From assembly GCA_951406725.2 (NCBI GenBank), contig OX597825.1, positions 744,001-808,000 on the forward strand: 64,000 bases of DNA. Direction: 5' to 3'. A program made the translations under genes and the position numbers. The stretch comes from Octopus vulgaris. Its lineage: Eukaryota. The notes below the pieces were generated by a model, which worked only from the letters and a program-made list of their open reading frames with translations, was not told the origin of the DNA and did not search any database. Below are positions 13,803 through 62,124 of the stretch, one piece after another (position 1 is the stretch's first letter; the number at the start of each line of letters is the position of its first letter).

Positions 13803-14633
13803 AGAAATAGCAGACAAATTTCATCAAATTAAATAAGGGAAGATACACAAGATAATGTAATCCTAGATATTTCTAAAAAAATGACAATGATACTGTCACA
13901 GCTGGGAACCTTTTGCCCAAAGGTTCAGTGGCTGAAGATTGCTCCATAGTTAAACACCAAAGATACTTCAACTACACTGCTGTGGGCTAATGGCTAATGT
14001 AGAAATAATTCAAAAGAGCAGTAAATTAATTGCTTTCACAAAGGGAAGTCTAACACTTTCAGCCTCAGCTTCTGACAAAAGCTTACTACCTGCTGTGTCA
14101 GACATTTTCTCTTCCCCATGGCAAACTAATTAGTTTTGGTTTTAAACTGTTCATGCTCTGAATGGTGACACAGACCATCACCAGTTTCCCCAGATTCCAC
14201 TATTTTCTTTTGTAGGAAATTTACTAAAGGTTTTCCCTCATGATTTCAAGAAGATCCTGCGGGTCGAAAACTGAGAGGGTGATCGTGGATAGACATAATT
14301 TCTCTTCATGAACATTTGGTTGAAGAGAACTGACGCTGTTACTGTTTGTTTCTAAGTACCATACGACTGCAGGCTACATTCGACAACAGTTTTCTATAAC
14401 ACCAGGTCGACAAATGATTCGTGAGTAAAATTTGTAAGAAGGAAACAACAGAAGCGTGCAATGTGTGGGTGTGCGTTGTTATGGTTTTGCTGAGTGGGAA
14501 TTCAAGTTTTGTCTTAATCGTTGACTTTGCTCTTCGTATCGAGTTACCCCATCAGTAAATGTTACGCTCTTATTTTGAACTAGCTTTGAAATAAAAAATT
14601 CCAATTTAACACACACACAGAACGTTGGTATAC

Positions 14634-14665
<32 letters not shown>

Positions 14666-15320
14666 GTAAACCAGTTCATATATAGAGATGTTACTGAAGG
14701 GAGGTAACTCTCAACCCCTCCTATTAACTCTGTGAAGCTCTTATTTCTCTTGATGCGTTTATTTCTTTACAGATTTCTTAGCTTTCTTTTATAAACGATG
14801 TTTTTGTTCCCTAAATTATTCTAAATAAACATACGACTCTGTTTTACGAATTGAGACAGTGTAAATAGGGATCGGTTAAACTGAGAAACAATAAAAAAAA
14901 TTTATTTAGAGTCTAGGTGCCCCAGTATGGCCATAAATCCCATAATGAAGACCAATAATAAAACAAACAAACATCAAAAAATAAAATTCACTCAAAACTT
15001 GTATATTTGCCTAAAATTTAAAAACCAATAAATTCCCAGAGTTATCTTCCTTGAATATTTGAAGCCAGGGGACTTACTTCCCTTTTTACACTAATTTTTA
15101 TAAGTTAAACCGAAAAAAAAGAAGTTTTGAAAGTTCAAAAAGGTTCTTTATAACGACTGGAGTTTTATTATTTTTTGATCCTTTAAAAGTGAAAAGAAAA
15201 ACTAAATTGACGAAGGCATGAATAGAACTCAAAATGTAAAGAGATGCAACACAGTATTGCAAAGCATTTTGATCAACACTCGTCCAAGTTTACGAATCCA
15301 CTTATTGGACATAACTACAC

Positions 15321-16085
15321 AAGTGGGCCCCTGCACGCAAATTTGTTTCCTCATAACTTTTTAAAGAATGGGTATCTTTTGATGAAATTTTCTACAAATG
15401 TTTCAGATGTGTCTATGATAATTATTTTGGAATTTGTTGCGGGGAGAGAGAAGCGTTTCAGATAACTCACATGCCTCGACTTTCTTCATGACTTTTAGAA
15501 AACTGGATATTTTGTAATGAAGTTTTCTCGATAACTTTCAGGTGGTGCAGATTACAATTATATTGAAATTCAATGTGAATAAAGCAAATTAGTGGGGGAT
15601 GGTCATTTCACTCACCTCAACTTTATTTCTTCATATGTTTATATGCAAAAAAAAAAAAAAAAACATGCAAACTATTCCACCCTTTCTATGAGTAAAATGT
15701 TTTTAATGAAAGAGATACTGGCATAATTTGAAGGAAAAAAAACTAACAGAGGAATTTGTTAGTATTGCTGGTTAGTATACAATAGGCCTAGAAAATTTCA
15801 TTCTTCAAAAAAATTTCATTTAATAAATTCCAGAAAGGAAAATATGGTATAGTCCTCAACATAATTGTTATCTACATCTTCAAAGCATATAAGAAAACAA
15901 AGTTGAGGTATCTGAAATTATCCCAAACTACTCTCACCCACCAGCAAATACTGATATAATCTTAATCTACAGCGTTTGAAATGTATTTTCAGAAATTATC
16001 ATTAAAAAATATCCATTTTTCAGATTGTTATAAGCAAACAAATTTAGTGTGATGAGAATAGACACATGTGTAACTGGACCTACTT
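15321..16085. mobile_element. Non-autonomous DNA transposon with long diverged TIRs
   Basis: Termini aagtgggccc / ggacctactt. About 140-bp degenerate inverted arms and an internal repeat of the arm motif near 15480-15580. Confidence 0.6.
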
Positions 16086-16329
16086 ATATGATCATAATAT
16101 TCATTCACACAAACACAACAGCTTTAGTAAGTGGAGAAATACTTAGATTTTGTTGAAATTGTTTATATATATAAACAAACAGAAAAAATGCCCTCCAAAC
16201 AAAATCAGTCATTTTGTAAATAATAAGTGCAAAACATATACTGCAATTGAAAGGAAAAAGTAAACATACAAAAATATGAAAAAAAATAGATGCCAATAAA
16301 ATATGAGCACAAAAGAAATCACTTGAAAA

Positions 16330-16430
16330 CATATGTGTATGTATATGTGTATGTATATGTGTATGTATATGTGTATGTATATGTGTATGTATATGTGTAT
16401 GTATATGTGTATGTATATGTGTATGTATAT
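16330..16430. repeat. 12-bp unit tandem repeat (ATATGTGTATGT)n
   Basis: Direct reading. Confidence 0.95.
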
Positions 16431-16555
16431 GCATGTTGTGAGTTTTTAGCATTGGCCTGAAGAATTATGCCTCTACATACATTTGGTAGTTTGGTTGTAT
16501 GTTTATAAGTACATGTACATACAAATGAAAAAGCTATATATGTATGAGTGTGTAT

Positions 16556-16812
16556 ATTGGGTCATCCCATAAATAATGCAGTTTTTCCAATTGCATGAAC
16601 AAAAAGTCAGTGGGGGATGCAATAAACTACCCGTATCATTTTGCTATAAAAGCAGGTAGATATTTTACCATGTCCTTATTCTTAGTGCAAGTTTTGAAGA
16701 GTGCAGTTCGATTTTAACAGTTATTTTTCCAAAGCTATAATGGAAGTGACAAAGGAGCATATTCGGCATATTTTGTTTTATGAGTTCCATAAAGGCAACA
16801 ACGTAACAGAAA
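16556..16812 (+). mobile_element. Mariner 5' end (TIR plus transposase start), cut off by the Tx1 LINE
   Basis: ta-ttgggtcatcccataaataatg TIR. ATG at about 16740 gives MEVTKEHIRHILFYEFHKGNNVTE. Confidence 0.8.
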
Positions 16813-19800
16813 ATGAGAAGGAGGGAGGCCATTAATTGGAAAGGCCACACCCTGGAAATTGTCGTACATGCCCCAAATGAGGTTCTGGAATCAAGGTCAG
16901 ATCAAATCTTTATAGGGGAGGGACTAAGTGCCCATGTTTCGGTGGAAGGTCAAAGACCGAGGTGTTTTAAGTGTGGTGAGAAGGGACATGTGAGGCCAGA
17001 CAGTGAAACGGCAAAAAAAGTAGATGTCCCTCCCCGAAAAGAAAAAGGTATAGAAACCAACAAGATGGAGGAGAAAAAAAACCGGGAAAACCAGAGAAAG
17101 AGACTAAGAAGAGGAGAATAAATCCCAGAAAACAAAAGATGGCAATAAAGGAAGTGAACGAGATAAAAGGGAAAAGATGGATTATACAGTTGTGACACAT
17201 AAAAGGTAAAAAACCCCAGCCCCTGACTCCCCTCCTCTAACAAAGAAAGCAATAACAACACGCATGCAGATACACAAGAAAAAATTCCCCAGTCCATTCC
17301 CAAATCGAAACCCCAGATCCCACCCCCCAATCAAAAGAAAGATACATAAAGTACAATGAAAAGAACCAAGTAATGGGTAGAAGACTCCCGCAGGTGTTCA
17401 TATCTAAGCAGGTACAACACATGCCAGCCCATATCCGGTTGGCAAAAGTTATTGACAATGAACTGTACGAATCATGTAAAAAAAAAGATATCCCAATGAT
17501 TTGCTGGATGTGACTAAAGAAGTGGTCCAGGAAATACTAGAGGCTGCACCCCAGAGAGAAAAAGAAGGAGAGACTGCCAAGATTAGTGCAGCCCTTCCCC
17601 AAAACGAAAAAACTTAAGTTTCTTTCTCTGTTTTAAATTCTTGCATGGAGATTAAAGTAAGGTGTATAAATGAGATGGAAACAAATTTGTCTCCTGAACG
17701 ACTTCAGGTCACTAAATTTGGATATATGAGTGGTAACTGAGTCCAAGTTGAATGAGCCACATATGTTCTCACCTCTTCTAGGAGGCGCAGGTGTGGTGAT
17801 TTTGTTCAGAAAAAGCTTGGACGTACAGGTAAGTACAGTCTTTCTGAACCCAGAAGGTAGGCTGGTAGACCTAGATGTGACACATGTAAGTAAGCAGTCT
17901 TTCAGGTTGGTAGTTGTCTATGCTCCGAATGAGTGTAGGCAAGCTGGGGTTTTTTTGTGACTTGGAGAATTTCTTAGTAATGTCTAAGACTCTAGTTTTA
18001 ATAGGAGACTTTAACACTAACTTTAACTCATTCGATGCATGAGTGGATAGTGTTGGCTCAGCAAAATGAAGGGGAAATCCTGGTCTGAAAAGGCTACTAA
18101 CAAGGTATGACTTAGTAGACTGTTATAGGTTGGATGAACCACTTGTTCCACAGTGGACGTGGTCTAATAATGACAGTTCACAAAGGTCTTATCTCGATAG
18201 AATATTCATTAGAGATAAGGATACTGTTAGTTGTCCATGTTTCTATTGCATCCCTTACATGGATCACAAATTTGTGACGTGTAAGGTGTACTTAGTTAAG
18301 TGCCATAGACGGGGACCAGGGTACTGGAAGCTAAACAAGTCTATTTTGACTTGTAAAACCTTCTGTGCCCGGATTAAGGAATTAGTTCAGAGGGCATTAT
18401 GTGGTGCCATCATCAATAATAGATGGTGGTGGGCCCTCAAAAGAGCCATTTGTTCAGAGTCTGTTAGATTTAGCAAACAGCTAAGTTTAGAAAAGACTAG
18501 AATAGAAGGGAAATTAGTTAAGGAATTAGAAGAGGCCATGGAATCTGGCTCTGTATCTAGAGTGACAGTGGCGAGGGCGGTCTTGTTTCGCCACCTCAAA
18601 GCCAAACACGAAGGGTGTAGAGTCAGGGCTATGTTATGTGCAGTGGGGAGAGTTGCCGGATGGGATTGTCATGTGGAGAGTCGTAGAGGCAGAGAAACCT
18701 CTATAAAGTCTTTAATTGATGAGCAGGGCTTTTCTGGGACCTGGAGAACTTCTTAGTGACGTCAAAAACTCTAGTTGTACTTGGAGACTTTAACACTATT
18801 CTCGATGCATGGGTGGATAGTGTTGGGTCGACCAATAGAAGGGGAAACCCTGGCCTCAAAATGCTACTAGAAAGCGAGCCATTCATTCTATATTCTATTA
18901 GATTTAGTAAACAGCTAAGTCAAGATAAGATTCAAATAGAAGGGACCTTAATTAAGGAATTAGATGAAGCCATGGAATCCGGGTCTGCAGCCAGAGTGAT
19001 GGCAGCAAAAGTGGTTTTTTTTTCCATCATCTCAAAGCCAAACACAAAAGGTATAGAGTCAGAGCTAAGCTTTGTGTGGTGGGGAGAGAGGGTATTAACA
19101 TTGCCGGACGGGCACATCGTGTGGATATTCTTTAATGGACGAACATATGCGTATGATGGAAGAACAGGAAGAGATGCAAAAGGCTTTTCACCAGCATTTT
19201 GCTTGGTTGTTTGGGGAGAGTGCCAGGCTGGACTGTGGGGAGTCCCCCTAAGGAACTCCCTTGCCAGTGGGCCATGACTCTTGGCACAGGAGGTGGAATG
19301 CTGTGAAGGGCTGATTATGGCTATGGAGGTTGAAGAGGTGCTGGCTGAGTGCACCAGGGACAAGTTGCCGGGGCTGGATGGTCTGCCCTATGAATTTTAT
19401 TGTAGCATGCCAGACTTATTCGGACACTTGCTGGCCTGCATCTACACTAACTGGCAGCAGGATAGGAGGATTCCCAGCTCTGTGAGTCAGGGACTGGTGA
19501 CGCTGATCAGAAAAGACTTGAGCAAGGGGGACCATATTAGTAATTTTAGGCCCATAATTCTACTCAATGTAGAGTTAAAGATTTTGGCCAAGGTGTTAGC
19601 AAAGAGGTTGGCGAGTGTTGCGAAGAAACTTGTTGGGAGAGTGCAGACATGCACCATCCAATTCAGGTTGATCCAGGACAATCTCCATCTCCTGCGCTAC
19701 ACCTTAGAGAGGGTGGGTAAATTATCCAGTAAAGGTCGGGCACTGGTCCATTTAGACCAGAGTAAAGCTTTTGATAGCGTAGACCACTAGTACCTGGCGG

Positions 19801-20650
19801 CGGTCCTCGAAGCAGCTGGGCTAGGTCCAGACTTCTGTGGTTGGATCACTGCCATTTATGGTGGCATCAAATCCACAGTCCAAATAAACAGTTACCTTCA
19901 TTAAAAGACATAACATGACTGAATGGCAAAAGGAGTGCTGACAGGCACTTGTGCTAATCCATAAGGTGGACAAGGTTGGCAGTGGGAATACCATCTCGAT
20001 ATTCTATAGAGGGCTGGTAGAATTTATGAGGGATGACGTCCTAGGAGAAGCTCCGGGGCTTGATGAAGGCCAGCTAGCCAATCTGTTTCAAAGAACTTTC
20101 AGGCCAGGGTAGCTGGATAACTACCAGAAATCCCTGACTTGGCAGTGCTATAGAATTGCGTTACCTGTTCACAACAGATTGTCTCAGCATAGAATGTCTG
20201 TGTCACTGACATGCCCAAAGTGTGGGCAGGGCGATGAAACTGTCCTGCAGCTCTTATTCAGGGCCCAGAGCTTTTGGGCTGATAATTTATGTAGAACACA
20301 TGATGTCACATCTAGGAAGAGTACAGCTCACTGCTGAGTCCATGATCGAGATTGTACCACCACCTAGACTATCAAAGGAAAGTGAGGCATGTTTTTTATG
20401 CACAGTCGCCGTATTGAAAGAGTGTATAAGGAAAACTAGAATAAAAGGAGTCATGACAGGAATTCTCATCTCTGGCCCTGGTTTGCTTTATTACTTCAGA
20501 TATCATCTGAAGAACAAGATAGGGCTGGAGAGGCACCTGATGCGAAGTATATTCGGGAAAAGATGGAAGGATGTGGCAAGGAAGTTGGGTATGAATGACC
20601 CTACATAATCTCATCCATGGTAGAAAAGTATGGTGTAGCTGTTGGGGTTC
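16813..20650 (+). mobile_element. Degraded L1-clade (Tx1-like) LINE: ORF1 zinc knuckle, APE endonuclease, partial RT, C-terminal Cys domain
   Basis: CFKCGEKGH; GVVILFRK, VYAP, IGDFN, WTW..SYLDRIF, DHKFV, GYWKLN; KLPGLDGLPYEFY, NFRPIILLNVELKILAKVL, LDQSKAFDSVDH. RT core absent and many stops. Confidence 0.92.
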
Positions 20651-33253: not shown

Positions 33254-35627
33254 CTGAAAGCCAAATATCTGTCAGAAAATGAAACAGAACACTTGAAAAA
33301 AAAAGAATACACAATGGAAACACAAGTTACAAAACAGAAAACAAACAAGAAAAATAATAAACATTTAAGACATAAATCATGAAGACAGAACTAGAACACA
33401 GAAAACAAAGAAATAACACAAATTCTAAAACCTATATAAAAACTGACCAACAAAAATGAGATCGAACAGCACCAACAATAATATGCATAAAAGAGAATAA
33501 AAAGAAAGAGGTTTACGAATATAGAGCAGCCAGCGTAAATTAGAAAGGTAATTGGGTACTAAAGTCATACAACAAAATCCAAATCAAAACAAACAACATG
33601 GAAAATAAACAAACAGAAAAGAATTAAGAGGAAAAAAGAGAGAAAGAAGACAACAGAAATACAACAATGAAAGAATGAAACCCCACAAAAAAAAAAAAAG
33701 GATAAATAAAGCTTAAAAAATTGCTAAATCACAAAGAATCTGGTAGTTTGAAAAGTGGCAGTGATTCTTTGAACAGTTAGAATCCAGTTCCAAACAAGTT
33801 TATCAAGAATTAGGTAAAAACAAAATGGAAATCAGCACAACACAAATGGCAAACGAAATCAAGGAATTTTAGAAAGATAGATTTATGGAGAGTGAAGTAA
33901 TTGTGACAGAGAAAGGATTTACTCAAATAACAAATATTATCTGAACAATTGTTGATGGGATATAACAATACAAGAGGTACCTCAACCACTACAAACAACT
34001 GGAAGGCACCAGGACATGATAAGATCCCAAACATCTGGGTAAAATATTTAACAGGAACATAGGTGTAGGCATGGTAGTAGAGTTGAGAAGCATGCTCAAT
34101 AGCAGTGTGCAGAACCTTGGACAAGTGTCTTCTAATATGTCCCTAGGCTGACCAAAGCCTTGTGAGTGGTTTCATGGTTGTAAATTTGAATGAAGCTAAA
34201 TTGTGTGTGTGTGTGCGTGCGCTTGCCTTGATGGTTGTAAATGTGCATCGTACAAGTAATATTGTTCATTTCTAGTTTTCTGTATGAAACATATCTGGCT
34301 TTGGAAACAGGTCAGGATTGGCAACAGGAAAGGCATCCAGCTGTTGGGAATCTGCTTCAACAAATTCTGTCTCATTCGCAAGTATGGAAAAGTGGACATT
34401 AAATGATGATGATGTGAGATATGAGCAGAGATACTTAATAAGATACTGACGAAGCTGTAAAAATACCGAATTGGCTCAGTGAAGTAAAAAATAAAAAAAG
34501 ACAAAAGCAAAAAAAAAAACGTTAACCTTTTTTTTTTACTATATATCTGTTGAAATACATTATTGTTGCTTTAATTCAATTTTATAAATTAGTAAAATAC
34601 CTTGTCATTATGAAGGTGGTATTTGAAACATAACATGACATTTTAATGGAAGGTTTTGAAGTGCACTTTCTGTGCATCCTGCAGCCAGGAGCAGCATCAG
34701 GTGAGTTGGTATGAAAAGGGTTAATTTGTAAAACTAAGAGAAACAATAGAATCTAAAACTTACAGACCTATAAGCTATCATTCTACTACTTACAAAGCTT
34801 TAACTGAAATAATATCAAAGAGAATAACTAAAAATCTAGCAAAGAAAAACTAACCAAAAAGAAATCCAACTCGTTTCTGAAAGAGCAGAAAGGTTGTTGC
34901 AAAGATTCATATGGCTGTCAAAAGCAATTACTGATCAACTGTAGGTTTTGTTACATTTTATATGGTTGCAAGCACAACAAAATATATAAAAAAAATTGGT
35001 TTCTCATTTTCAAAATAGCAAACAAGTACAAAAGAGAGGCTGAAATAATATAAGTAGTTGTGAGGAGAAAGGAAAAAGAGCAGCAGAAGTTGTGAAAAAC
35101 TTAAGTTAGGAAAATGGTCCGTAGAATGTTATGCTTAGGTGATAGCAAAAAAAGCCCCTAGATGAGTTATGCCTGAGAAGAGAAACTGAACAAGGAGGAA
35201 ATAAACAAAGAGAAATCATAATACTGATTAAGAAGGATTCAAAGTTAAAACTGAAAGATTCTTTATTCTCTTGGAGTTAGGCTGGCATAATGAAACAGCA
35301 GCAGAAAAGAGGTGGAATGAGTCTGAAAGAATGACAAAGCAACCATACTTTGGGATATGCCAATCCATTCAGGCAGGAAGAACAAGAATAATTGGCCAGA
35401 TATTGCTATCAATGACAATTAGGAAAGAAAGTACCCCCTAATGGAAGTGTTACCTGAACAAATAATAATGTATCTCTAAAAAAGATGGAGAAATTATGCA
35501 AACATTGATATCTGAAAATAGAGAACATCAGAAGATGAAAACTGTAATAAGTTTTATATTGAAGAGATGAGGAATTATTTACATTATTTACAATTGATGG
35601 ATATTTGTCCTCATCTTGTTCATTGTT

Positions 35628-35673
35628 AACACAATGTTTTGCCTGATATACCCTCCAGCCTTCATCAGATGTC
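35628..35673 (-). ncRNA. Type-I hammerhead ribozyme (family A, GAAA mutated)
   Basis: rc: GACAT CTGATGA aggctg gagggtatat caggc AAAA catt GTGTT. Confidence 0.65.
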
Positions 35674-36308
35674 TTGGGGGAAATTTCGAACCTGGGCTCT
35701 CATTCCTAAGGTATTTTTCAATGTTGTTATTATTATTATTATTATTGTTATTATTATTGTTATTATTATTATTATAACTATTATTATTATTCAGGTCACT
35801 GCCTGGAATCGAACTCAGAATCTTGGGGTTAGTAGCCCGTGCTCTTAACCACTAAGCCAATTCACCTGACACTGCTCCTGGTTGTATGATGCACAGATCT
35901 TGTTTTAAAGTATGCTTTAAAAACCTTCCATTAAAATTTCATGTTATGTTTCAAATAACCACCTTCATAATGACAAGGTATTTTAATAATTTATAAAATT
36001 GAATTAAAACAACTATAATGTATATCAACAGATATATAGTAAAAAAAAAAGGTTAACACTTTTTTTTACTTTTGTCTTTTTTTTATTTTTTACTTCACTG
36101 AGCCAATTAGGTATTTTTACAGCTTCGTCAGTATCTTTCATCATCACTTAATGTCCACTTTTCCATGAGCCCATGGGCATATGGTGTAGTGGTTAAGAGC
36201 GCGGGCTACTAACCCCAAGATTCTGAGTTTGATTCCAAGCAGTGACCTGAATAATAATAACATCAAAAATACCTTAGGAATGAGAACCCAGATTCAAAAT
36301 TTCCCCAA

Positions 36309-36350
36309 GACACCTGATGAAGGGTGGAGGGTAAATCAGCCGAAACGTTG
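36309..36350 (+). ncRNA. Type-I hammerhead ribozyme (family A)
   Basis: GACAC CTGATGA agggtg..cagcc GAAA CGTT G. The 3' strand of stem I is lost by deletion. Confidence 0.7.
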
Positions 36351-37999
36351 ATCAGCTGTCAATTGCAAATAATGTAAATAATGAAAACTGTAAACAAAAC
36401 AACCTGTATACATGCTTTTGGAAGGATCAAAAAACATGCAGACAAATATATAAGCAAAACCAAAGGATTTACTAATGTGCACAACATTAGTACTACTAGA
36501 CACCACACACATGGTACTGTTAATATAATAGAAATTACAAAACCAAAACAAGTCACTACACGTAGCCAAGGCATAGTGTTGTATTGAATAGTACACTGAA
36601 AGCACGTAATAAAAATAAGAGTACCGAATAATAATAATAATAATGATAATAATAATAATAATAATAATAATAATATGAAGGAATAATTATAAGAAATTAC
36701 AAGGAGGAACATAACATCATGTGATGTTCTTGAAAGTTAGTCCAGTTATATCTGAACAATTAATGCCTTATTTTCACTGGAAATCAAATACACATTTCAT
36801 GTAAGAAAAAAAGGGACTAGAAGGGGTCAGATAATGAACTGGATAGGAAATGTGAAACTAAGAAAAGAAGTTGAGGGTCATCTGCTCATTGTTATTTCTC
36901 ATGCCACACCAATTCACACATCTTATTTGAGCTCAGCTTCAGTCCCACTCTGTGGGAAGTTGGGCAAATGTCTTCTACTAAAGCCCTAAGCTGACCAAAG
37001 TGTTGCAAGTGAATTTAGTAGACAGAAACTGAAAAAAGCTAATTGTATATCTGTGTTTGTGTGTGTTTGTGTGTATTTGTCTTGACATCACATGAAGTTG
37101 TAAATAAATGTTATCCTCATACAAGCAGTGCCCTTCATTTCCAATCTTCATCAAAAAACATTATTCAATCAAAGGAAAATATTAGCTTGCTTGGAAACAG
37201 GTGAAGGTTGGTGACAGGAAGGGCATCCAGCTGTGGAAAATCTGCCTCAGGGAATTCCACTTGACCAAAGCAAGCATGGAAATGGGGGATATTAAAACGA
37301 TGGTGATAATGATGATGAGTCTGTATAATTTGTTGTACAACACCAAAAACTGAGGAAGATAAATGTCAAAACTAGAAATGCCTCATTATGCATAATATTC
37401 ATTACACATAAATATTACCATCCTTCATTATATCTAATATTTGCCATCCTTCAATGGACATCCTTCACAGTCTATTTTGCCAAGAATTGAAGATGGCAGC
37501 GAATAATCTCAGGCATAAATAAATATAAAGTAACAACAAGTGGCTTAGAAAGAGACAACCAATAATTGGATTCTTTAACTATTTTTCTTGTTTTTCTTTT
37601 TCTGTGGTACAACATTAAGTAAACATCTTTTGTTAGCAACCGGCTGAAGTAAGCTAGGAATTGACATTGTAAATATCTCTGAACAAATGAATACAGTCAA
37701 TATTGTTTAGCCCAAGGCTGGCCCTCACTGAACAAACCTATGATCAAAAGAGTTCCAATTACAATCATCTTATGTTATTTTTAAGAACTACATTATCCGA
37801 TGTGCATTTTCCTTTCAAGCTGATAGAACTTAAAGATTTGACAACTAGTTGTAGTAAATAAATTTCTCTGGGTATATATTAATAAAAAACATGAACTCAT
37901 ATGATACTGTTACAAGAAATATATGCTTTTGGCCACTGAATATTTTGGTTGAATGGTAATAATATTATTGTGAGAGTATATACTCTTATAGTCTATATC

Positions 38000-54559: not shown

Positions 54560-55890
54560 AGAACTACGACATGACCTTTAAAAGACATATCGAGGATACA
54601 TGGAAAAGATACCTTGATGACTGTTTCCAAATTTGGACCAAATCCCTAGAAAATCTGGAAGAATTCAGCACCCTCCTCAATAATCTAAACCCTGGTATCA
54701 AATTCACAAGAGAAATGAGCAACACACGATTCCCATTTCTTGACAAATGGTAATTAAAAACAACTTCACAACCTCAACTGATATTTATTACAAAAGCACA
54801 GATACACACCTGTACCTAAATTTCAAATCATGCCACCCAACACACACAAAACACAACATCCCGTACTGTTTAGCCAGGAAAATTTGTATTATAGTCGATA
54901 ATCCAAATACCAGAAACACACAACTTATAGAACTCAAAGGGTTTCTGCTCAAGCAAAATGACCCTCCCCTACTGATAGAAAATAGCATACAACGAGCAAA
55001 AGAGATACCTATAGAACAACTTAGAGCAACAAAAAAAAGACAAACCCATCAAAGGAACACAATACCATTTCTAGTAACATACAATCTACATCACCAAAAC
55101 ATTTTAAACATCATCAAAACAAATTTGCCAATCATAAAACAAAGTGAAAAATTAAAAAAACATAATAACTAATCAAACACTTAACTTAAGCAAAAGGCCA
55201 CCACATAACCTGAAGGATCTATTAACAAAGGTGGGGTGAGCTGGCAGAAACGTTAGCACGCCAGGTGAAATGCTTAGCGGTATTTCGTCTGCCGCTACAT
55301 TCTGAGTTCAAATTTCACCAAGGTCAACTTTGCCTTTCATCCTTTCGGGGTCGATAAATTAAGTACCAGTTATGCACTGGGTCGATATAATTGACTTAAT
55401 CCGTTTGTCTGTCCTTGTTTGTCCCCTCTGTGTGTAGCCCCTTGTGGGCAGTAAAAAAATAAGAAACTATTAACAAAGGCAAAATTCAACATAAACAAAT
55501 GAGAGAACACATTCACAGTATCCATGTGTAATGGTAACAGATGTGGAATATGTCCCTACATGTGTACGGGTAGATCCATTAGAACAGATTTTCGCAAATA
55601 CAAATATGAACTGCAAAAGCAGAAATTTTACCTACTGCATTAAATGCCCAAATTGCAAGGAATTATATATAGGCGAGACAGGGAATGCATTATCGGAACA
55701 CTCATGAATCCACAGACAACATATCTGGAACTCCAATGTCCACCAAATTCCATTGAATGAACATAAAGAGACATGTGGTCAAAAAATGCTTCTAATTTTT
55801 CCTTTCCACAAACTACAAGACACAAGTGAAGTTGGAAGAAAGATAAACGAAAAACGGTTCATTAAAATGATCAAACCGGTTCTGAACGGA
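54560..55890 (+). mobile_element. Degraded Penelope-like element (RT C-terminal half, Cys linker, GIY-YIG endonuclease; Neptune-like)
   Basis: WKRYLDDCFQIW, IKFT, FPFLD, TDIYYKSTDTHLYLNFKSCHP; KRPPHNLKDLLTKA; CNGNRCGICPY; NFTYCIKCPNCKELYIGETG. Confidence 0.92.
55232..55466 (+). mobile_element. Young Nin/Deu-domain SINE nested in the Penelope ORF, 13-bp TSD
   Basis: TSD ctattaacaaagg at 55219-55231 and 55467-55479. Highly similar to the 13572 copy. Confidence 0.92.
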
Positions 55891-56223
55891 AATAACAGCA
55901 ATAATATAACAACCAGGTAAAGATGTGGATGAATAAATATAAACAAGTTACAAAATATTGGTATACCTGGCAAACCATGATGTTTAAGAGTATGTGGATT
56001 GGTTAAAAAGGTATTCAAAAAATTCAGCTGGTTGGAGAGTTCTAAGAGGTACTAAAGTTGTCAAGAACTCTCCTGTCAGTTAAATACATTTGAAATTTGA
56101 TGATTACACTATGTATGGAAGCATTAATTTTGTTAAAATACGATAATAAAAAAACATGAAAACCAGACTGTTTTAACTTTATTCAACTGATATATTATTC
56201 TACACACATTCACACACATTCAA

Positions 56224-56684
<461 letters not shown>

Positions 56685-57067
56685 GTGGCCTATTGGATGT
56701 TATACATTGCTAGTTACAATGCACTTGATATCACTTTTTAGCTTCTGAATGATGGCATCCTGCTGGTTAGCGCAGTAGGCCAACATCCCCACCCTGATCA
56801 GAAGGCTGGTCCAATGCAGGGTCACTCATTCACAGCTGAGTGGACTGGAACAATGAGAAATGAAGTGTTTTGCTCAAGAACACAATGCACCACTCAGTCT
56901 GGGAATTGAACCCATGATCTAGCAATCATGAATGCAAAAACTTAACCAATGGGCCACATGCCTTTACATACATGCACACACACACACATGCATATATACA
57001 TATTAAAACATAATCATTGTTCATTATTTACATTCGACGGATATTTGTCCTCATCTTGTTTGTTGTT

Positions 57068-57113
57068 AACACAATATTTCGGCTGATATACCCTCCAGCC
57101 TTCATCAGGTGTC
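57068..57113 (-). ncRNA. Type-I hammerhead ribozyme (family A)
   Basis: rc GACAC CTGATGA aggctg gagggtatat cagcc GAAA tatt GTGTT. Confidence 0.78.
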
Positions 57114-57390
57114 TTGGGGAAATTTCGAACCTGGGTTCTCATTCCTAAGGTATTTTTTGATGTTGTTGTTATTATTATTATTATTATTATTGTTAGGTCA
57201 CTGCCTGGAATTGAACTCGAAACCTTGGGGATTAGTAGCCCGTGCTCTCAACCACTACACACATTCACACTAATTTGAAACAATATATATATATATATAG
57301 GGAGAATTCACAAAAAAAAACAAAAGATGAAGATGGGTGGTGTAGAAAACAAACAGATGTATTAGTATAATGCTTGGGAATTGAAAAACT

Positions 57391-57426
57391 CTTTAATGTT
57401 TCGAGCCTACGCTCTTCCACAGAAAG
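57391..57426 (-). ncRNA. Hammerhead-like motif (family E) in a secondary insertion at 57300-57475
   Basis: rc CTTT CTGTGGA a gagc-gtag-gctc GAAA catt AAAG; variant core. Confidence 0.6.
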
Positions 57427-57575
57427 AAACAAGGAGAGAAAAAAAAATGCGTGTAGTGGCTACTGATCTGTCATGTATATAAATGTTCAAGTGGCGTAGT
57501 GGTTAAGAGCATGGGCTACTAACCCTAAAATTCCGAGTTTGATTCCAGACAGTGATCTGAACAATAATAATAATG

Positions 57576-57623
<48 letters not shown>

Positions 57624-57670
57624 TTGTAAAATACCTTAGGAATGAGAACCCAGGTTCGAAATTACCCCAA

Positions 57671-57716
57671 GACACCTGATGAAGGCTGGAGGGTATATCA
57701 GCTGAAATGTTGTGTT
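57671..57716 (+). ncRNA. Type-I hammerhead ribozyme (family A)
   Basis: GACAC CTGATGA aggctg gagggtatat cagct GAAA tgtt GTGTT. Confidence 0.78.
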
Positions 57717-58431
57717 AATAACAAACAAGATGAGGACAAATATCGTCAAATGTAAATAATGTAAATAATGTAAATAATTCCTCATCTCTTAAATATAGAA
57801 TTGTATAATCATTGTTGTATTTTTTCTTCTTTATTTGTATGATGTCCTTTTATTTCATAATAGCAGAGCTCAGATAGCTTGACAGGACCTATTCTCAGGC
57901 ATCTCAAACATCTTTGAATCCCTCATTGATCGCTTTTTAATATGCTTAAGTCTCTTAGACCTTCTTTAAATATTTATTCGTGGTTCACTCTATGCCGGGT
58001 TCTTTTCTTTCTCAACACCTTCTATTTCCCAAAGAGCATATACAATATATGACCAGAAGGCAATGAGAAATCCCCTATGTTATTCTCCCATAAAAATTCT
58101 ACAACAAGCACATACCACTCATCAAGGAAATCCGCATCAGGGGCCGCCCTTCAACCTGACAGCATAAGAAATGGAGGAATACATTGTATATTCACACGAC
58201 ATGGCTAAACTAAATCTATCAACTCTTGTTAAAACATTTATCTCCCAATGGCTTTTATAACTATTCACTTCACAGATTCTGTTTATCAGATGTTATAATC
58301 AAAGTATAATCCAGTGGATTATACTCAATTTGTTCCTCTTCAATTCAAATATGATCTTTAGTTTTCTATTCTCAGAATCATATAACCAGTTGACTAACCC
58401 CTAACAACAGTATCAAACAAGGAGAATATAT

Positions 58432-60503: not shown

Positions 60504-60814
60504 TTGTATGTATATACAATAAATAATAAAATGGGATACACAAGACAAAAGGAGACACGGGGTACAGAAAGTTGCTGAAGAGATCATAGAAAAAGTGACA
60601 AAAGAACTCTGACAAATAAACTACCAATGATAATAGAAAAGCTAAAGTGAAAATCAAATATATAGTGTGTGTGTTTAATTAGCAAAAGGTGACCATCCCC
60701 AAATATAACAATATCCGATTCAACACTCAATTTCACATCAAGAATATTGCATATGTAATGTATATGTAAATATGTATGTACGTATATACTTCTATCTATA
60801 TATGTGTGTATATG

Positions 60815-61707
60815 TATTCCGATCAATAAGTATCTAGACTGTTGCCATAGTAACGAAGCTAAAGCACACAGAGTGAAGCCACTTGGCACGGATTGACCTT
60901 GAACTCTGCTGTGCATGCACACTAAGTTTTAATGTTCTAGCTCATTTCAGCTGTTTACAGCAGTGCCTGGAAGGAAGGTGTGTAGCGTGTGATTGCCACA
61001 TTGACCTTGACAGAGAAAGTTGAGCAGAGAATCTGCATTAAAGTTTGCCAAAAGCTTGGTGATACCTGCTCAGAGGCCTACACAAAATTTCCAAAACGTT
61101 TTCACCGTTCTTAACACAATCAAGGAGATCTTGTGCAACTGAAACCCGAGTATCTTTTTGGTTAGCTGAAAGCAGTTTGGGCACAAACTTGGGAGACACA
61201 CGTCTCATACCCAAATCTTCAGTGATAATGGACTGAACTGAACCGTAACTAATCTGCACATTCTCTGACAACTCACAGATGGTGTTTCGACAATTTCCCC
61301 TTGCAATTGCATGCACATCTGCAATGTTCTTCTCTGTTTTGCTGGTTGCAGGTCTCCCAGAAAATTCGTCACTATTGACATTTTTTCGACCATGTTGGAA
61401 GCATCTGAACCACCTGTACACTTGTGTGTAACTCATAAACTCCTCTCCATACACTTTCTGCAACTTTGTGTTGGCCTCTGAGCAGGTGTCGCCATGACAA
61501 CTTTCTCTGTCATGGTCAATGTGATGATCACACGCTACACACGTTCCTTCCAAGCACTTCTGTAAAAAGCAGAAGTGAGCTAGAACATTAAAACTTAGTG
61601 CACATGCACATCAGAGTTCAAGGTCAATTTGTGCCAAGCAGCTTTACTCTGTGTGCTTTAGGTTTATTGCTATGGCAACAGTCAGGATACTTATTGATCA
61701 GACCCCT
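60815..61707. mobile_element. Mariner derivative with two inverted 5' ends; minus-strand HTH transposase remnant
   Basis: 60815-61090 is an inverted copy of about 61460-61705. ORF reads VYGEEFMSYTQVYRWFRCF..SGRP..ISYGSVQSIITEDLGMRRVSPKFVPKLL. Confidence 0.88.
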
Positions 61708-62124
61708 TAAACACCCATTATATATATAATGGGTGTATAAGGGGTATGATCAATAAGTAAACAAGGGAAAAATACACACATTATATATATATATATATAT
61801 ATACATATACATAACGTAGAATATATGTATATGTTTAACTTTTATCTTTTACTTGTTTCAGTCATTAGACTGCAGCCATGTTGTGGCATCACCTTGAAGA
61901 ATTTTTAGTTAAAAGAATCAATCCCAGTACTTATCTTTTATTAAGCTCAGCCCTTATACAATGGGCTTCTTTTAGTTTCTGTTTACCAGATCCACTCAAA
62001 AGGCTTTGATGACCCAGGGCTAGGCTAGAAAACACTTGCCCAAGATGCCACATAGTAGGACTGAACCTGGAACCATGTGGTAGGGAAGCAAACATTTTAT
62101 CACATGACATGCCTACATATATTT

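Follow-up and report, generated by a model that had tools for sequence, protein, structure and literature searches.

Endonuclease-positive (EN+) Penelope-like elements (PLEs) of the Penelope/Poseidon type, as described in passages of PMC3846280, PMC8557442, PMC11167929 and PMC4209133, encode an ORF with a reverse transcriptase (RT) plus, at its C terminus, a GIY-YIG endonuclease and carry a pLTR with a minimal hammerhead. Their inverted, 5'-truncated copies have a tail of ~30 nt at one end and a target site duplication (TSD) of about 10-14 bp. The formation of these inverted insertion units is stated as open in passages of PMC8557442 and PMC11167929. A PLE protein, in this case that of an Anolis PLE, cuts both strands in vitro and extends both, with two sites of RT initiation marking the bounds of the tail (PMC11167929), and passages of PMC3846280 describe unrelated sequence captured between solo pLTRs inside TSDs, as well as host-DNA spacers in Pen1. 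Copying of nearby DNA into a junction is described for two further systems. L1 templated insertions and twin priming (bioRxiv 10.1101/2024.08.27.596794; PMC11702581) involve a microhomology-closed inversion junction and preservation of the TSD, and the passages of these sources considered here give 22 instances among 3,598 insertions, with typical lengths of <250 bp and typical distances from the site of no more than 15 bp. SD-MMEJ (theta) insertions, as far as the relevant passages of PMC5728401 describe them, yield inverted copies by snap-back and direct copies when priming is in trans or by loop-out, microhomology being involved in both priming and resolution, the repeats lying within about 30 bp and the insertions being short.

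We analysed a 64,000-nucleotide stretch of the Octopus vulgaris genome (the window), in which two arms of a Penelope-like family lie head-to-head with a filler at their joint, all within a 13-bp TSD (Table 1). Because this one TSD surrounds both arms and the filler, the locus represents a single insertion. The tail-less right arm, which starts at the element's own palindrome, extends 13 nt further 5' than the tailed left arm, and only one derived variant in 148 scored sites is common to both arms. The insertion is old and dead, and there is no evidence that it has a host function.

Table 1. Positions in the window of the insertion, its filler and donor, and a second insertion of the same family
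Feature	Position	Strand	Description	Basis
Donor	34384..34709	+	End of dispersed SINE/LINE-tail repeat, linker and part of old dispersed repeat	Alignment, genome search
Left TSD copy	35535..35547	+	13 bp	Exact repeat of 36381-36393
Left arm	35552..35859	-	5'-truncated pLTR, reference 2203-2466; ~30-nt tail at outer end; expanded AAT array	
Minimal hammerhead-like motif, left arm	35627..35675	-	GAAA core altered in this copy	Sequence; architecture compared with passages of PMC4209133
Filler	35857..36166	-	Inverted donor copy	Local alignment
Right arm	36169..36383	+	5'-truncated pLTR, reference 2190-about 2440; tail-less; internal deletion near 3' end	
Minimal hammerhead-like motif, right arm	36307..36350	+		Sequence
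Right TSD copy	36381..36393	+	13 bp	Exact repeat of 35535-35547
Second insertion of the family	57010..57816		12-bp TSD, 57010-57021 and 57805-57816	
Arm of second insertion	57022-57258	-		
Arm of second insertion	57492-57803	+	Tailed	

The arms are 3' ends of an EN+ Penelope-like element and not SINEs. Searching with the right arm identified copies whose upstream sequence continues into the end of an ORF with a GIY-YIG-like motif; ORF pieces lie directly upstream of arm sequence in L044, L050 and L053, and longer copies add RT motifs. We take the DKG, YVDD and GIY-YIG-like motifs of these pieces to represent RT and GIY-YIG endonuclease. The top Atlas matches of an ORF piece (0.96-0.97) carried HTH_animal at 90-98% and GIY-YIG at 13-19%; Pfam gave no match on either of two element ORF pieces, and no intact full ORF was seen among the element copies examined. 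A pair of tRNA-derived SINEs was ruled out, as the arms run upstream into the RT/GIY-YIG ORF, and the segment that the first-pass annotation had called a tRNA head proved to be an internal piece of the pLTR, continuing upstream into the ORF in other copies. The octopus arms resemble tRNA-headed SINE pairs in that the tRNA-like segment marks the usual 5' end of short copies; they differ from such pairs by running into an RT-endonuclease ORF, by their 3' hammerhead and PLE tail, and by having one TSD per pair.

In the arm sequence a tRNA-like segment is combined with an AAT array and a minimal hammerhead-like motif, and one arm carries the ~30-nt tail. The tRNA-like segment, with motifs that we take to be A- and B-box-like, sets the octopus family apart from the Penelope-like elements described in the passages above; ARAGORN found no tRNA in the 64-kb window. 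The hammerhead-like motif consists of CUGAUGA, helix II and GAAA with a palindromic ACGU, as in passages of PMC4209133, and its core pattern is intact in 81 of 128 arms. Rfam returned no hammerhead match (its sole match was a chance sRNA on the AAT array), and folding energy was unremarkable in all three hammerhead regions, with z ranging from -0.54 to +0.90 over five segments. The 5' ends of short arms cluster between reference positions 2189 and 2217, peaking at 2189 and 2196, and 66 of 71 scored arms reach no further upstream than 2189, where the tRNA-like segment starts (36169-36240 in the window). This pile-up, for which a literature search found nothing comparable, could reflect either short transcripts of Pol III type that start within the pLTR, giving SINE-like short copies, or an RT stop at the palindrome.

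Since the 200 kb beside the window held no copy of the family, further loci were chosen by motif, and 139 pairs were obtained from 191 loci after removal of 25 duplicate or replaced loci. One arm was tailed in 125 of the 139, neither in 13 and both in one, in a sample that was partly tail-picked, and the TSD score was at least 9 in 86 pairs relative to 3 of 139 mismatched control pairings. A chain rule paired 70 of 95 tail-picked copies, the other 25 including some that nested insertions interrupt and some that the short flanks truncate. In L121 the tail runs on into ORF-side sequence, and the tail 24-mer has 4,478 exact genome matches. Arms are 4.6-6.1% from the consensus and 90-94% complementary to each other today, often meeting without a spacer. 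Both head 14-mers are exact at a gap of 40-70 in 119 pairs; at long gaps, both head motifs are exact in no pair at 250-280 and in one, the present locus, at 350-380. The AAT array is a frequent target of later repeat insertions of 200-1800 bp (L012, L054, L093, L098, L103, L134, L146, L155, L161, L166, L176 and L177). One insertion with shared flanks occurs at six places on contig C31 (L048, L059, L060, L064, L066 and L067), which suggests segmental or tandem duplication.

The filler is a copy of nearby DNA. The first-pass annotation had described it as the reverse complement of DNA 0.8-1.2 kb upstream, and local alignment of the two segments bore this out, giving 278 matching and 18 mismatching positions plus 44 gap columns (93.9% identity ungapped; the gaps include 27 nt absent from the copy and ~12 nt absent from the donor); the donor lies 826-1151 bp from the left target duplication, on its left side. 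Against the 2.8-Gb genome, among the best 40 of 578 candidates, the filler matched itself first and the local donor second (E 2e-92, 88% over query positions 3-278), and the remaining 38 matches were partial, at 69-83% identity to an old dispersed repeat (best E 5e-21); no other match among these 40 covered the whole mosaic. The filler scored 371 against its own locus; at 16 control 20-kb loci its highest score was 99. These results uphold local copying over independent repeat insertion, and the genome search, over the candidates scored, ruled out the spacer being a common repeat mosaic. The donor is thus the locus-specific mosaic that had been proposed, with the exception of its supposed truncated TTAA MITE, which we could not confirm; that part is an old repeat with 68-75% identity to its copies.

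The left end of the donor lies inside a repeat that continues upstream, and its right end lies inside an old repeat that runs to ~34736 in other copies; the filler halts at the arms. Because the donor repeats extend past both copied ends and the filler ends at the arms, copying proceeded from donor to filler. At the left junction CCA (35857-35859) is common to arm and donor, which is the microhomology noted at first pass, and at the right junction CCAT is common to donor and element, followed by 2 unassigned nt. The sequence gcccatgggc, formerly read as a product of the right junction, is ordinary element sequence (36169-36178) present in most copies. Contigs from organism X3 contained both a donor-specific piece (34384-34491) and a spacer-specific piece (35943-36115), and those from organism X7 likewise (34469-34588 and 35874-36004); an X7 contig also runs from the left flank to the tail (35335-35578). 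Neither filler junction is crossed by any of the X3 or X7 pieces listed here, and no empty allele of the locus was seen in four sequence runs. As donor-type and filler-type pieces were found separately in two other organisms, one of which also spans flank to tail, an assembly artefact is unlikely.

Local capture recurs among insertions of this family. Pattern searches with two head motifs yielded 20, 14, 14, 5 and 7 loci at gaps of 90-120, 121-151, 152-182, 183-213 and 214-244, respectively. Among 48 loci of the first four gap classes, 15 had a non-element run of at least 40 nt and 33 were element-only; of five further matches, one was fetched and four were judged element-derived from their ends. 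We aligned 16 non-element fillers to ~10 kb of flank per side, with the flanks of other loci as control, and found a local donor for 11 of these long fillers (10 clear, at ≥2x the best control, and one moderate, at 1.3x); for the other 5, no donor was found within ~10 kb. The 214-244 class held three non-element fillers among its seven loci, and one of these three had a donor in the ~1.2 kb of flank available: the filler of L289 matched at 159 of 166 positions, inverted, 273 bp away, and those of L286 and L288 had no donor within ~1.2 kb. A 22-nt filler in L130 matched at 21 of 22 positions a donor 540 bp away, with no separate control.

Fillers with donors span 20-310 nt, and the 15 donors lie 0, 108, 109, 184, 249, 273, 309, 540, 765, 842, 950, 951, 1389, 3692 and 4722 bp away (median 540 bp, range 0-4.7 kb). 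Mapping of spacer origins at other loci, which the first-pass annotation had proposed, gave the outcome in favour of its reading, local donors for 11 of 16 other long fillers; the whole set of 15 donors ruled out any rule by which the copy is always inverted and upstream: 10 were direct and 5 inverted, and 7 lay to the left and 8 to the right (left-direct 4, left-inverted 3, right-direct 6, right-inverted 2). No rule tying donor class to the side of the tail was seen by eye in this small set. Short microhomology was present at most filler junctions, as read by eye with no null. C13:74.91 lacks the 3' end of its left arm, and C14:69.40 has no detected TSD. Two single-arm copies have inverted flank matches near their 5' ends, one of 178 nt at 91% in L284 (4172-4349 and 4629-4805) and one of 67 nt at 84% in L186 (4432-4498 and 4819-4885); these may be captures or pre-existing inverted repeats and were left out of the counts. 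When loci were picked by tail only, 2 of 70 pairs (L130 and L170) had a local-copy filler, 30 of the 95 loci having 1.5-kb flanks only. By extrapolation from the exact-tail count and the 4.6-6.1% divergence of arms from consensus, the genome would hold ~14,000-20,000 insertions and several hundred captures.

The filler of the second insertion in the window opens with a ~44-nt direct copy of 56200-56244, which has moderate support (score 46, compared with 31 in the control). Beyond this copy and a TA run lie ~180 nt that, on the minus strand, look like the hammerhead region of a different Penelope-like family and that probably entered the TA run later; a control locus has a repeat resembling them. 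Besides the pair at 57022-57761, which belongs to this second insertion, the window contains further inverted repeat pairs at 60793-61728 and 15339-16045, formed by repeats other than this family, and a decayed segment at 55560-55900 that by eye looks like the GIY-YIG end of another Penelope-like family.

The explanation that we favour, and to which we give about an even chance, is that the locus is a single Penelope-like insertion whose joint was filled by microhomology-primed synthesis on DNA 0.8-1.2 kb away while the cDNA ends were being joined. The GIY-YIG endonuclease would nick both strands ~13 nt apart, and each 3' end would prime reverse transcription of the element RNA, one where the tail begins, the other ~30 nt further in. 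Both cDNAs would stop near the palindrome that starts the tRNA-like segment, leaving two free, non-complementary 3' ends. The left cDNA end, terminating in CCA, would anneal at 34707-34709 on its own strand, in single-stranded flank exposed by resection, and would be extended by 310 nt, heading away from the break, after which the new end would pair with the right cDNA end via ~4 nt and the gaps would be filled. Copies would be inverted where an end annealed to its own flank and direct where it annealed to the opposite one, which would account for all four side and strand classes. A template switch during integration had been suggested before; the evidence supports copying that was local, ran from donor to filler and was tied to integration (the 13-bp TSD encloses the filler), and does not support the SINE framing, the palindrome as junction product or an inverted, upstream rule. 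The copying enzyme may have been a host repair polymerase acting on resected DNA, which we favour, or the RT.

Arm extents bear on how the two cDNAs would be primed. Among 69 tail-picked pairs, the tail-less arm extends >20 nt further 5' in 34 and the tailed arm in 21, with the two within 20 nt of each other in 14. Since fold-back can yield only a copy that lies within the extent of its template, simple fold-back is excluded in 34 of the 69 pairs and is largely refuted as a general route, and both target ends were therefore most likely primed separately, as happens with the Anolis PLE protein in vitro. Derived variants are shared at 1.27% of sites by arms of the same pair vs 0.63% by arms of different pairs (0.71% vs 0.24% at non-CpG sites). 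Donor-filler divergence, 6.1% at this locus and ~9% summed over loci, is like the pooled arm-arm divergence of 9.5%. Several points count against the favoured explanation: the 5 of 16 long fillers lacking a donor within ~10 kb, and the two of three further ones lacking one within ~1.2 kb; the length of the fillers (20-310 nt) and the distance of the donors (up to 4.7 kb), which exceed the SD-MMEJ events described in passages of PMC5728401; the similar ages, which fit repair soon after integration as well as capture during it; the element-derived pieces at other joints, which point to template switching by the RT; the single derived variant common to the two arms of the present locus; and the missing left-arm 3' end of C13:74.91 and missing TSD of C14:69.40.

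We weighed several other readings of the filler. The element's own RT might have jumped from its RNA onto nearby genomic DNA before cDNA joining, within the same integration event; we consider this unlikely, since a PLE RT would need duplex DNA up to 4.7 kb away as its template and resected ends explain the four side and strand classes simply. RT may nevertheless switch templates at the joint, because the joints of L137, L138 and L291 hold pieces from distant, non-contiguous parts of the ORF region of the element, and these lie in either orientation (reference 36-66, 257-305 and 582-628, respectively), and extension of ends on DNA templates by L1 ORF2p has been invoked for templated genomic insertions in passages of PMC11702581. 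By reading, the joints of L147, L192, L204, L219 and L223 also hold distant ORF-region pieces. Repair of a broken palindrome centre is a known process, and a near-perfect palindrome could have formed first, its centre breaking later as a hairpin or cruciform and being patched from a local template. The high complementarity of the arms, which often lack a spacer, is in keeping with such an origin, and an early secondary event would be compatible with the ages. We nonetheless hold it to be quite unlikely: unbroken near-perfect pairs persist (the 119 with both 14-mers exact), the same position holds element-derived pieces in other copies, and the filler is as old as the arms.

If the RT switched to a host transcript being made at the target locus, the template would be a local RNA. 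Kilobase distances would then need no resection, both orientations would follow from the ability of either arm to hold the copy, and RT would be on site at that step, but the mosaic donor consists of decayed repeats and shows no signs of processing, which makes this reading improbable. Least credible, and in our estimation very improbable, are a self-primed fold-back of the cDNA with the filler as a detour, two insertions flanking a local inversion, and an assembly artefact. Self-priming has been put forward for PLE inverted units in passages of PMC3846280; the arm extents in octopus favour two primed ends over it. Fold-back copies of 10-30 nt at the palindrome before the joint (L019, L021, L024, L025 and L028) indicate that self-priming occurs as a minor step, those of L019, L021, L024 and L025 speaking for it, but as the main route it requires that one arm lie within the extent of the other, which holds neither here nor in the 34 pairs noted above. 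Two insertions do not agree with the one TSD that surrounds everything, and an artefact does not agree with a 6% difference between donor and filler, nor with both versions being present in independent samples of two other organisms.

Microhomology-primed synthesis at the cDNA joint, our preferred explanation, can be compared with the described systems. The octopus family shares with EN+ Penelope-like elements the ORF, pLTR, inverted truncated copy, tail and TSD set out at the beginning; it differs in that its captured DNA can be traced, the passages of those papers giving such DNA no local source, side, strand or distance. Like L1 templated insertions, the octopus captures are copies of nearby DNA within an intact TSD and at a junction with microhomology, but their templates reach 310 nt, lie 0-4.7 kb off on either side and strand, and were copied between two arms that each start at the element 3' end; the present filler is 310 nt long with its donor at 826 bp, and one of the 15 donors lies within 15 bp. 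As in SD-MMEJ, local copies occur both directly (10) and inverted (5), with junction microhomology read by eye; the octopus cases exceed the events in the cited passages by one to two orders of magnitude in length and in distance, the 15 donors lying at 0-4722 bp and not within tens of bp of the break, and the ends involved would be cDNAs. Inverted Penelope units and L1 templated insertions are thus already known, and capture over kilobases at a Penelope joint is without a literature match: we found no tracing of PLE joint fillers to local DNA in a search that was thin for older Penelope papers and subscription journals, and the supplements of PMC3846280 and PMC8557442 may list such captures. 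Insertions by polymerase theta are generally shorter and nearer than these fillers.

The value of the locus is as a fossil read-out of an integration step and not as a functional locus. The extents of the arms fit priming from both target ends better than fold-back, and the local fillers indicate that free 3' ends at the joint reached templates kilobases away with the TSD still intact; both fossil signals lead directly to predictions that the existing in vitro system and cell assays can address, namely on the class of template, its distance and the dependence on resection or polymerase theta. For annotation, there is the warning that such Penelope-like arms are easily mistaken for SINE pairs. 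More tentatively, and at somewhat less than an even chance, PLEs may integrate via an intermediate in which two cDNA arms, each primed independently, have free 3' ends that search DNA to ~5 kb on either side, with tens to hundreds of bases copied into the joint at a few percent of insertions. As a genome-wide fossil record, the fillers would then document this intermediate, and they would have given this genome several hundred small local duplications from a recurrent, undescribed source, made possibly by the telomerase-related RT itself.
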